A model generated the notes under the pieces. It was not told the DNA's origin, searched no databases, and worked only from the letters and a program-made list of their open reading frames with translations. Position numbers and translations under genes: made by a program. A DNA stretch of 30,779 nucleotides from Bdellovibrionales bacterium (GTDB lineage Bacteria > Bdellovibrionota > Bdellovibrionia > Bdellovibrionales > Bdellovibrionaceae), in the NCBI GenBank assembly GCA_031370005.1, contig JANMPT010000061.1, positions 1-30,779 of the forward strand. The letters are read 5' to 3'. The stretch's first letter is position 1. Each line of letters opens with the position of its first letter. Below are positions 1 through 2,511 of this stretch, piece by piece.

Positions 1-2511
1 GTACAAGTAAAGATCGCTTAGCCTATTAACGACTAAGTCGAAATTGTAGTAATAATCAAGAATTGTCGTCGTGAGCCCATGACCCTTCACCGCACGCCTT
101 GAAGGCAAATCCACAAAATCCGAAGAAAAAATCCAATCCACTTCTCCAAATACATATTCATCAGTACTTCTTCTTTGTTGATCGGTGGCAATTCGATCGC
201 CCGCATATCCTAAAAGGTCTTTGATGCTGTAAGGGCCTCCGATAACATTAATTTTGCTTGAGTTTGCAAGATAAGCGAAACTGTAAGACCCAAGCGGACT
301 GGCAATCGACGTTAAAAGTCCACTTGTTGCATTGTACGTATAGGTTGCGGTCTGACCGTCTGGTCGAACAATTGAAGTTAGCTGTTTGTCGAGGTTGTAA
401 TCATAGGTCGTGTCTTTTGGTGTAAAAGAAAGGTTTGGAGGTGCGTACTTGGATAAGCCCTCAAATAAGTTATATTCAAACATATGTTTTGGACGGCTTG
501 GCGGGGTCACTCCTTTTATGTTTCCATTTTTATCGTATTCAACTGTTGTAACAGTCAAATCTGGTTTCATGACAGTTGTCACTCTTCCAGAAGCGTCATA
601 TCCGTAAGTGGTTTCTTGATTTAATACGTCTTTGGTTTTTTGAATCGTGCCGTCAGTATTGTATGTATATTCTGTGCGGTAACGAGTTCCTTGTTGCGTG
701 TAGCTAATCCGTCCGTTTAAATCGTAGGCGTAATCCCACGCCGTATCTGTTCCTACCTGGGTTTGAACAGTTTTTCCATAGTTATCAATTACTTCTTTCG
801 AAAGCCCACCCTCAGTGGTCGAGGTTGTAAACGTCTTTGTGCTGGCGTCATAGGCTTTCGTAATAACTGAATATCCAGAGTTGTAATTTCCTCTGGTGGT
901 GGTTTCTGTTCGCGTTGCCACTGAAAAAGGATCAGAGCCCGACAGCGTAGCCTGCTTATTTATAGTAATCGCCTCAGTGCTGGTTCCTAAGTATACACTC
1001 ATCCAGCTCATATAATTGCCGGCAGTTGACCAAATGGGATCTGGAGAAAACACACCATTAAAGCTCGTATATGGTGAGCGCGACTCTTGTGAGGCTGAGC
1101 TTGAGTTTGCTATTTTGACTTCCCCTGTTGGAAGAGTTTCAATTCGGGAGCTATTAGATATTTCAGTATCAAATGAGGTTGCGTAGGTTGTTGTTCTACC
1201 CATTTGAGACGTCTTAATAATTGGTTTTGAGGCTTGATTCACATCTCGCAAAAACTGCCAGAAGTTGCCAAAAGCGCCCTGTTCTTTTGTTAGATTCCCG
1301 TCCGTATCATATGTAAATGTCGTGGTTTGGCCCTCTGGCTTTTGAAAAGTCGCTAAAAGACCTGTTGGGCCGTAGGTCATGTTATAGGTTTCGTTGGCAG
1401 GATTTGTGACCGCTGAAATATATCCATTTATATCTAAAGAAACACTCGTGACTTTTCCATAGGGGCTAGTTAGCCCCGTGATCGCTCCACTGCTGCGATT
1501 TATAGTTGTTTCGTTACCATAGGCATCGGCAATTTTTGTTAAGCACTGATTTGCATCATACGTCATCGTATAGAGGTCTGCCCCCACAATGGCCGACTTG
1601 GTTTTTAGGTGCCTTCCGTCGGCGGCAAAGACATAAGCTTCCCGTCCATCAGCACTTAAAACTGCAAGCTCGCCGCTTGTCAGCGTTTTAAAATCAGTAT
1701 TTTTAAATGTTCCATCCCCATACCAAAGCCTTTTTGCTGCAACATCAAGAAAATGAACTGGTGTGATATTCCACCCTGCCATGCAAATGCGGGACGGCAA
1801 AAATGTTCCAATAGCTAAGGATCTTCTGTCTAGAAGCTTAAAAGGCGTTCCGTTTTCGAAAGTCGCCGAATAATTAATCGCCGTTGAGTTTTGAATAAAA
1901 TTCGCACTGTTATCTAAGTGGTCCCAATCATAATTAAAATTTAGATTGTCAGAGGGTGTGATGCTAAAATTTTCAGTGCGGCCAGCAAATGTAAGCTCAA
2001 TATTAATGGAAGATAAATTTGAAGGCGGCGCAGTGCCAGTTAGAGGAATCGTAATTCTGGTGCCCTGCTTATACCCCAGTGTTCTTTGTGAGTCATAAGT
2101 TAAACTCCAATTTGTACCCGCAATCGGAATGGCCTCCGTGAAGGTCTGAGCATCAATGTTAATAACCGAGCCGCTGTCGGTTGCCGGGCATTGGTTTTTA
2201 TTCCCCGCATTTTCTAAGCTCTTTGTACGCCCCGTTCCAGCGCTCGCGTCTGCGGTGATCACACAATTACGATAACTAAGATATCTTTCGCTGCAGCCGT
2301 CACCGTACAAGGCATGATAGGTATCTGAACAAAGAAAGCCCATCGTGATCGTTTGCGCCCCGACTGGGCAGTTGGCAAAAAAAGCCTCTCTCTCGATAAT
2401 ATCCTGCGGCGATCCGCACTCCAGATACCCACTTCCCCCTGGGCAAGTAATGCTTGCTTTGGAGGCCAAAGCCCCGAAAATAATAAAGATTAAAGATAGA
2501 ATTGATTTCAT
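1..2511 (-). CDS. Secreted YD/RHS-repeat, teneurin-like protein (N-terminal 837 codons; 3' end lies outside the window)
   Basis: Manual translation from ATG at 2511 is open to base 1; the ORF track missed it because there is no stop in the window. Signal-peptide-like start MKSILSLIFIIFGALASKAS, a Cys-rich segment, teneurin-like motifs (GSVINIDAQTFTEAIPIAGTNWSLTYDSQRTLGY; LTFAGR; NLNFNYDWD; AGWNITPVHFLD; LWYGDG; SADGREAYVFAADGRH), then many YD repeats (TTTFTYDTDGNLT, YAYDLNGRIS, TTYGYDASGRVTTV, TTYDYNLDKQLTSIVRPDG). Confidence 0.9.
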   Translation of the reverse strand, partial: MKSILSLIFIIFGALASKASITCPGGSGYLECGSPQDIIEREAFFANCPVGAQTITMGFLCSDTYHALYGDGCSERYLSYRNCVITADASAGTGRTKSLENAGNKNQCPATDSGSVINIDAQTFTEAIPIAGTNWSLTYDSQRTLGYKQGTRITIPLTGTAPPSNLSSINIELTFAGRTENFSITPSDNLNFNYDWDHLDNSANFIQNSTAINYSATFENGTPFKLLDRRSLAIGTFLPSRICMAGWNITPVHFLDVAAKRLWYGDGTFKNTDFKTLTSGELAVLSADGREAYVFAADGRHLKTKSAIVGADLYTMTYDANQCLTKIADAYGNETTINRSSGAITGLTSPYGKVTSVSLDINGYISAVTNPANETYNMTYGPTGLLATFQKPEGQTTTFTYDTDGNLTKEQGAFGNFWQFLRDVNQASKPIIKTSQMGRTTTYATSFDTEISNSSRIETLPTGEVKIANSSSASQESRSPYTSFNGVFSPDPIWSTAGNYMSWMSVYLGTSTEAITINKQATLSGSDPFSVATRTETTTRGNYNSGYSVITKAYDASTKTFTTSTTEGGLSKEVIDNYGKTVQTQVGTDTAWDYAYDLNGRISYTQQGTRYRTEYTYNTDGTIQKTKDVLNQETTYGYDASGRVTTVMKPDLTVTTVEYDKNGNIKGVTPPSRPKHMFEYNLFEGLSKYAPPNLSFTPKDTTYDYNLDKQLTSIVRPDGQTATYTYNATSGLLTSIASPLGSYSFAYLANSSKINVIGGPYSIKDLLGYAGDRIATDQQRRSTDEYVFGEVDWIFSSDFVDLPSRRAVKGHGLTTTILDYYYNFDLVVNRLSDLYLY

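Follow-up and report, generated by a model that had tools for sequence, protein, structure and literature searches.

Propeller-less relatives of teneurin-like proteins in Bdellovibrionota: a probable family of exported polymorphic toxins

Results

A toxin-like gene split between two contigs

The window is the whole stretch of DNA that was analysed, 30,779 nt forming contig C32 (JANMPT010000061.1) of a Bdellovibrionales genome (G000). It opens inside a gene: a stop-free frame on the minus strand runs from 2511 to 1, encodes 837 residues and is open at the start of the contig. The gene continues on contig C81 (L001:1–1494, plus strand), and the two contigs have in common an exact 141-nt end that is found on no other contig of the genome. 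The C81 part comprises 497 codons, 47 of them overlapping the window part, so that the full protein has about 1287 residues. The full-length orthologue P0003 aligns with the window part over residues 1–837 and with the C81 part over residues 791–1185, the latter at 73% identity. An assembly artefact or broken gene is excluded by the unique 141-nt end and by the alignment of both parts, which overlap at 791–837, to one orthologue.

The C81 part contains an RHS core with the autoprotease residues R347, D360 and D384 (C81 numbering), whose spacing of 13 and 24 is identical to that of R2103, D2116 and D2140 in the bacterial teneurin-like protein (TLP) BiTLP (PMC13018210, cited throughout for the portion of its text that was accessible). 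The core is followed by a 109-residue C-terminal domain (CTD; L001:1165–1491, plus strand) and, starting 1 nt into the stop codon, by a 162-residue hydrophobic open reading frame (L001:1494–1982) with at least three hydrophobic segments, which is a candidate immunity gene. An RHS core, a toxin-like CTD and an immunity candidate are thus all present on C81, where a preliminary description of the window had looked for them beyond its edge. Further downstream lie an orphan core and CTD (L001:1983–2378), the core being a 91% identical repeat, and a hydrophobic 177-residue frame after the orphan CTD (L001:2372–2905).

Beyond this orphan cassette, L001 carries a 54-nt core remnant and then an AbiEi/AbiEii type IV toxin–antitoxin pair directly behind the orphan cassettes (L001:3137–5144), with a lower GC content of 39%; its toxin has a weak C-terminal WYL match. 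The GC content of the locus is similar to that of the genome. The upstream neighbour of the gene is a divergent rpsB–tsf operon, and the region from 2808 to 30168 of the window is housekeeping-like (rpsB, tsf, uppS, cdsA, rseP, tsaB, cysteine metabolism, Mla, mdh and sucCD), with 7 of 27 scanned frames giving no NCBIfam match at E ≤ 1e-8.

Domain structure and the absent propeller

The window part of the protein is composed of a short variable N-terminus, a plug and the first part of a YD shell, all encoded on the minus strand. Residues 1 to about 19 (2455..2511) form a predicted Sec signal peptide, assigned by a hydropathy heuristic: the N-terminal hydrophobic 10-mer has a mean hydropathy of 3.0, and a 10-mer of at least 2.0 occurs in 76 of 85 family members. 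It is followed by a Cys-rich hypervariable domain and linker (residues 20–114, seven cysteines; 2170..2454), the predicted N-fragment, which is modelled with low confidence and has no Atlas match. Only about 95 residues separate the signal peptide from the plug. The plug consists of an N-terminal part (residues 115–147; 2071..2169), a fibronectin-III-like (FNIII-like) core (residues 148–236; 1804..2070), delimited by structure and gap statistics, and a C-terminal extension with a GW..G.G motif (residues 237–270; 1702..1803). A junction of about 11 residues (1669..1701), at the site of the NHL propeller in canonical TLPs and teneurins, leads into the YD/RHS shell (residues 282–837; 1..1668), which was assigned by Pfam and continues across the contig join on C81.

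The best match of the query among PDB sequences (phmmer) is BiTLP (9IFO, E 1e-55). Query residues 111–218 correspond to BiTLP 720–827, residues 233–275 to 881–923 (on its own a weak segment, 0.9 bits) and residues 278–751 to 1262–1729, and in this alignment 2 query residues at the plug–shell junction stand against 338 in BiTLP. The FN-plug, NHL propeller and shell of BiTLP span residues 673–928, 929–1255 and 1256–2139 (PMC13018210); the NHL propeller is therefore cleanly absent from the query. A Pfam scan gives no NHL, TTR, PAAR or DUF6531 match at E ≤ 1. The FN-plug family PF24329 also has no match in the query, and the plug was assigned from phmmer and structure instead. The plug resembles DUF6531 by eye, but the hhalign probability for the pairing is 0.9% and does not exceed that of a reversed control.

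An AF2 model of the 837-residue part (pLDDT 81, mostly below 50 across residues 1–114) agrees with this assignment. Its top Foldseek match is again 9IFO (TM 0.79), and a VIA superposition on 9IFO aligns 717 residues with a Z-score of 32.9 and an rmsd of 2.1 Å. Metazoan teneurins score lower (Z 19–28), and type VI secretion system (T6SS) Rhs effectors lie at the bottom of the range (Z 13–24). Residues from about 92/95 to 236 have FNIII-like structural matches (Z ~7), covering much of the region (about 110–270) in which the preliminary description had placed an FN-plug fold. That description had proposed a signal-peptide-exported FN-plug and YD shell with neither an NHL propeller nor a PAAR/VgrG N-terminus, and each part of this architecture is recovered here, the signal peptide as a prediction from hydropathy. 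The motifs on which it was based all occur in the 837-residue frame in the order given, including the 18 residues between LWYGDG (residues 262–267) and SADGREAY (from residue 286).

We found no PAAR, VgrG or DUF6531 match in the query or 11 relatives at E ≤ 1, and searches of the host genome (99.79% complete) with Hcp PF05638 and with PF05954 returned none while detecting positive controls.

A widespread family with two forms

The query belongs to a widespread family, which has a smaller second form; neither had been foreseen in the preliminary description. Type A members have the plug and FN core and lack NHL; type B members also lack NHL, and their FN core is reduced to 7–16 residues. In a sample of 446 sequences, skewed towards the query's type, 176 remained unclassified after profile mapping (fragments or other Rhs proteins), and duplicate removal gave 109 type A sequences, 23 type B sequences, 133 canonical TLPs and 1 ambiguous case. 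The junction measures 11–28 residues in all 109 type A and 23 type B proteins versus 247–1031 in the 133 canonical TLPs, which also excludes an assembly artefact at the junction of the query. Shell length is alike in the three groups (mostly 860–950 residues).

Judged by a single continuous match across the junction, at least 46 of the 401 genomes surveyed in the phylum encode propeller-less forms: at least 33 of the 53 from the family of the host, at least 12 from other families, and G000 itself. These tallies are lower bounds because at most five candidates were scored per genome. Some genomes carry 3–4 copies. The nearest named homologue is from Bdellovibrionales (70% identical), other members come from records named Bdellovibrio, Bacteriovorax and Bdellovibrionales, and a single-protein locus scan returned 2 loci.

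Both ends of the propeller-less proteins are polymorphic. The 86 N-termini compared divide into 58 clusters. In type A the N-region has a median length of 119 residues and mostly 5–8 cysteines; in type B the median is 180 residues, and the region often looks β-sandwich-like by eye. The CTDs of both types (56–167 residues, save two 21-residue stubs) form 65 clusters among 84. An adjacent frame follows the gene in 43 of 44 loci by a lenient criterion.

Some members depart from this plan. The type A protein at L082 (G399:C88; 1701 residues) lacks NHL and has an RCC1-like β-propeller within its YD shell (residues ~1065–1342), a different propeller type at a different site. Three matches (L044 and L092, both in G099, and G160:C1:1464198–1465206) are broken by or precede an IS-like frame, or are split by a stop codon.

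A predicted cleavage site and odd cysteine parity

Cleavage of BiTLP occurs at G723|S724 and again following its DPxG motif, and C719 is disulfide-bonded to a cysteine of the CTD (PMC13018210); the accessible text reports such a plug–CTD bond for BiTLP only. Alignment places the predicted N-terminal autocleavage site of the query at Gly114|Ser115 (2167..2172, minus strand), and the conserved upstream Cys108 (2188..2190, minus strand) is the counterpart of C719. Ser115 is invariant in 18 of 18 aligned sequences. A wider count gives serine in 105/107 type A and 23/23 type B proteins, figures inflated by a site finder that accepts S or C within ±2 positions. Most proteins have a cysteine among the 8 residues that precede the site: 99 of 107 of type A, 20 of 23 of type B and 115 of 128 of the canonical TLPs. 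Cysteine replaces serine at the predicted cleavage position in 17 of 128 canonical TLPs.

The shells are almost free of cysteine (0.05%), and the number of cysteines in the CTD is nearly always odd: 66/68 in type A and 18/18 in type B, or 84 of 86 propeller-less members. Canonical TLPs behave similarly (75/79), versus 34/54 for other Rhs proteins after 7 TLP-like rows were dropped from that comparison set. Counts of Trp, His, Met, Tyr and Phe in the same CTDs, used as controls, split evenly (36–45 of 86 odd). By CTD cluster, 63 of 65 are all-odd, and 68 of 76 mature N-fragments likewise have an odd number. The odd parity of the CTDs points to the plug-to-CTD disulfide of BiTLP as a family rule. 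We infer, as the simplest reading of these sequences, that one unpaired cysteine per fragment would form a tether, so that the toxin in its cocoon would consist of two chains. The close relative P0118, which has a papain-like CTD, has neither the G|S site nor the upstream cysteine and may be a natural tether-less variant.

A probable His–Cys enzyme and its partner gene

Six CTD homologues share the invariant residues C4, H25, C62, Y88, N94 and C95 (6/6). The order, with histidine before cysteine and a Y..NC..F motif, is that of a permuted NlpC/P60 pattern. Matches to LRAT, PPPDE and TseH are weak (the lowest E-value for any of the six is 7.7e-5), with those of the query's own domain below the cut-offs. 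The Atlas match for the CTD is TseH (0.90), a profile search against the PDB gave no match, a homologue search returned one relative, and the single-sequence model has a pLDDT of 32. The CTD of this copy is likely a permuted NlpC/P60 (LRAT/TseH-like) His–Cys enzyme acting on the envelope lipids of a rival. It has in common with Tox-Act1 and TseH the His-before-Cys order, the NC motif and a membrane immunity candidate, and differs from them in its sub-cut-off matches, smaller size (109 residues), extra invariant C4 and C62, and an activity that is a prediction. Tox-Act1, a permuted NlpC/P60 protein, acts in the periplasm as a phospholipase, and its immunity is of a membrane type, which the hydrophobic segments of our immunity candidate resemble (PMC12994826, in the part accessible).

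The CTD and its downstream partner move between loci jointly, as a candidate toxin–immunity pair. The same CTD (65–87% identical) occurs on a distantly related type A gene (genome G220) and in an orphan cassette (G072), and the downstream genes at both are homologous to that of the query (31–57%). At three more distant CTD homologues, the downstream genes have no significant similarity.

If C4 and C62 of the CTD pair internally, the sole free cysteine is the predicted catalytic one, so either there is no tether or the active-site cysteine is the tether. Four other TLP CTDs have as their sole cysteine a residue that we take to be catalytic, and keep the upstream cysteine; either they have no tether or the active-site cysteine serves as one. 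A cysteine-peptidase CDI toxin under redox control provides a precedent (10.64898/2026.05.07.723447), although the accessible part of that study gives its catalytic-disulfide test as not confirmed.

Placement of propeller-less forms among TLPs

Shell trees were rooted on other YD/Rhs proteins, mostly DUF6531-bearing, an outgroup that aligned at only 15–38% across most of the shell, and were built with FastTree (186 rows), IQ-TREE (49 rows) and a C20 mixture model (35 rows); BiTLP and teneurins were outside the sets. The rooted trees place the main A/B group among the canonical TLPs of Bdellovibrionota, within the wider canonical set, with supports of 85–97 on the path to the group in the mixture tree. 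All four best rooted trees, including the free tree, nest propeller-less forms within canonical TLPs. Separate propeller losses exist elsewhere: in the unrooted tree, P0017, P0209 and P0231 sit amid other canonical TLPs (P0231 shifts once the outgroup is added), and the shell of P0017 shares 54% identity with a canonical TLP versus 44% with any propeller-less form. Type B arises 3–4 times, and the query's own clade lies among type B shells, which together imply repeated loss of the FN core or recombination. A tree of the plug and FN regions alone is mostly unresolved. Secondary loss of the propeller from canonical TLPs is favoured by these trees, though not proven.

The preliminary description had suggested an intermediate between Rhs toxins and teneurins. 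In an AU test on 49 rows (the strays P0017, P0209 and P0231 excluded; constrained searches short and fast, one 'AB clade' search ending 25 logL under the free tree), a stepwise ladder was rejected (p = 0.0009), as was a basal position of type B (p = 2e-6). What survives of that suggestion is a position as sister to the canonical TLPs, whose monophyly was not rejected (ΔlogL 21, p = 0.34). In this form the propeller-less proteins would be the surviving sister of all NHL-bearing TLPs and teneurins, representing a stage before insertion of the propeller. The Rhs-like layout of type B, with plug and shell, and the occurrence of NHL as an insert in the YD protein of Tc toxins (PMC5851990, legend to its Figure 4) would suit such a history. 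We nevertheless regard it as unlikely, given the nesting beside Bdellovibrionota TLPs, the rejected topologies, fast as those searches were, and the separate losses. The type B plug, moreover, has no significant profile match to DUF6531, and Rhs and teneurin-type plugs have been called non-homologous (PMC8765631, in the portion accessible).

Discussion

The query behaves as a TLP by architecture, yet falls outside the strict definition of the class. With BiTLP (9IFO/9PT5; Raoelijaona et al. 2026, PMC13018210) it shares, as far as the accessible text describes it, the FN-plug, a YD shell of ~885 residues with the R/D/D autoprotease, a signal peptide, a G|S site with an upstream cysteine, and a variable CTD of ~100–150 residues (~15 kDa) with a downstream immunity gene, the last judged here by genomic pairing. 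Unlike BiTLP-type TLPs, it has no NHL propeller and no TTR, TIP or adhesin array before the plug, and is ~1290 rather than ~2000–2900 residues long; a Cys-rich variable N-domain of ~95 residues stands in their place, and type B lacks the FN core as well. Metazoan teneurins (6FB3, 8R50, 9G41) share the FN-plug and shell fold, whereas the query has no TM, EGF, TTR or NHL segment, has a variable CTD and keeps the autoprotease motif that they have lost. T6SS Rhs effectors (RhsA, Tse5, RhsP, Tse15) resemble the query in the size of their YD cocoon, in a pair of predicted autocleavages, in CTD–immunity pairs and in orphan cassettes; the query differs from them in its Sec-type N-terminus and in lacking PAAR, VgrG and DUF6531.

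The propeller-less family is new relative to the literature searched, and is kin to the known TLP polymorphic toxins. Our searches, whose coverage excludes most subscription journals, gave no account of NHL-less TLPs. The survey of TLPs admitted to its search only proteins with all three domains and treats the FN-plug/NHL/YD superfold as invariant; its accessible text does not list Bdellovibrionota, and the searchable files of its supplements do not mention Bdellovibrio, Bacteriovorax or Oligoflex (PMC13018210). Bdellovibrio RHS genes appear merely as a list in the accessible part of PMC3818213. A common natural form of ~140 kDa without the propeller, together with a form without the FN core, defines a minimal sealed cocoon in which the targeting role has likely moved to the tiny variable N-domain. 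These forms bear on the invariance of the superfold and on delivery and release, which the same survey left open. The cysteine parity, found also in canonical TLPs, extends one 'surprising' disulfide to a candidate release mechanism that can be tested directly across the family. The family also brings to light a large repertoire of probable toxins in predatory bacteria, hitherto hidden under the annotation 'RHS repeat protein'.

We consider the propeller-less TLP probably a Sec-exported polymorphic toxin that arose by module loss. The signal peptide would export the protein, the FN-plug alone would seal the YD barrel, and the chain would undergo self-cleavage at Gly114|Ser115 and behind the DPxG motif of the RHS core. 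The small variable N-domain would stay disulfide-linked to the encapsulated C-terminal toxin, which the product of the next gene likely neutralises. Carried beyond the periplasm, the CTD of this copy may attack the envelope lipids of a rival cell. The ancestor of the family would have been a canonical TLP of Bdellovibrionota that shed its adhesin, TTR, TIP and NHL modules.

A wider picture, which we put forward tentatively, is that Bdellovibrio-type predators widely possess toxins of two chains, polymorphic at both ends and packed in a cocoon that is discarded. The disulfide-rich N-domain of ~10 kDa would select the target and one disulfide would tether it to the cargo. In cargoes that are cysteine enzymes, such as this one, the tether would be the catalytic cysteine, which would keep the toxin inactive until thiol exchange in the target; both NHL and the FN core would be dispensable additions to the teneurin scaffold.

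A role in predation, with the barrel delivering prey-modifying effectors or serving as an adhesin rather than acting in competition between predators, would fit the enrichment in the host's family (at least 33 of 53 genomes) and the regulation of pili by another Bdellovibrio RHS protein, Bd0109 (PMC3818213). CTDs that turn over to an extreme degree, cognate genes downstream and orphan cassettes are instead hallmarks of conflict with competitors or kin, and the gene adjoins rpsB–tsf, not pilus genes; we find this role quite improbable. That the gene is a decayed remnant of a canonical TLP, shortened by deletion and without function, as two canonical TLPs in the same genome and a few broken relatives (e.g. 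L044 and the G160 match) might suggest, is very hard to reconcile with more than 130 distinct homologues that have the same short junction and kept cleavage motifs.

The two canonical TLPs of the host genome (L002:8192–13234 on C61 and L003:1–4419 on C49) both reach contig ends and carry PKD, TTR, FN-plug and NHL domains, a contrast to the query within one genome. Their N-terminal ~340 residues (signal and PKD) are near-identical and their cores divergent, which suggests recombination. A fourth, more distant YD protein (L004:2–6682 on C56) contains NHL and has a Gly-rich hydrophobic CTD; a lipoprotein-like downstream frame and orphan fragments are its neighbours.
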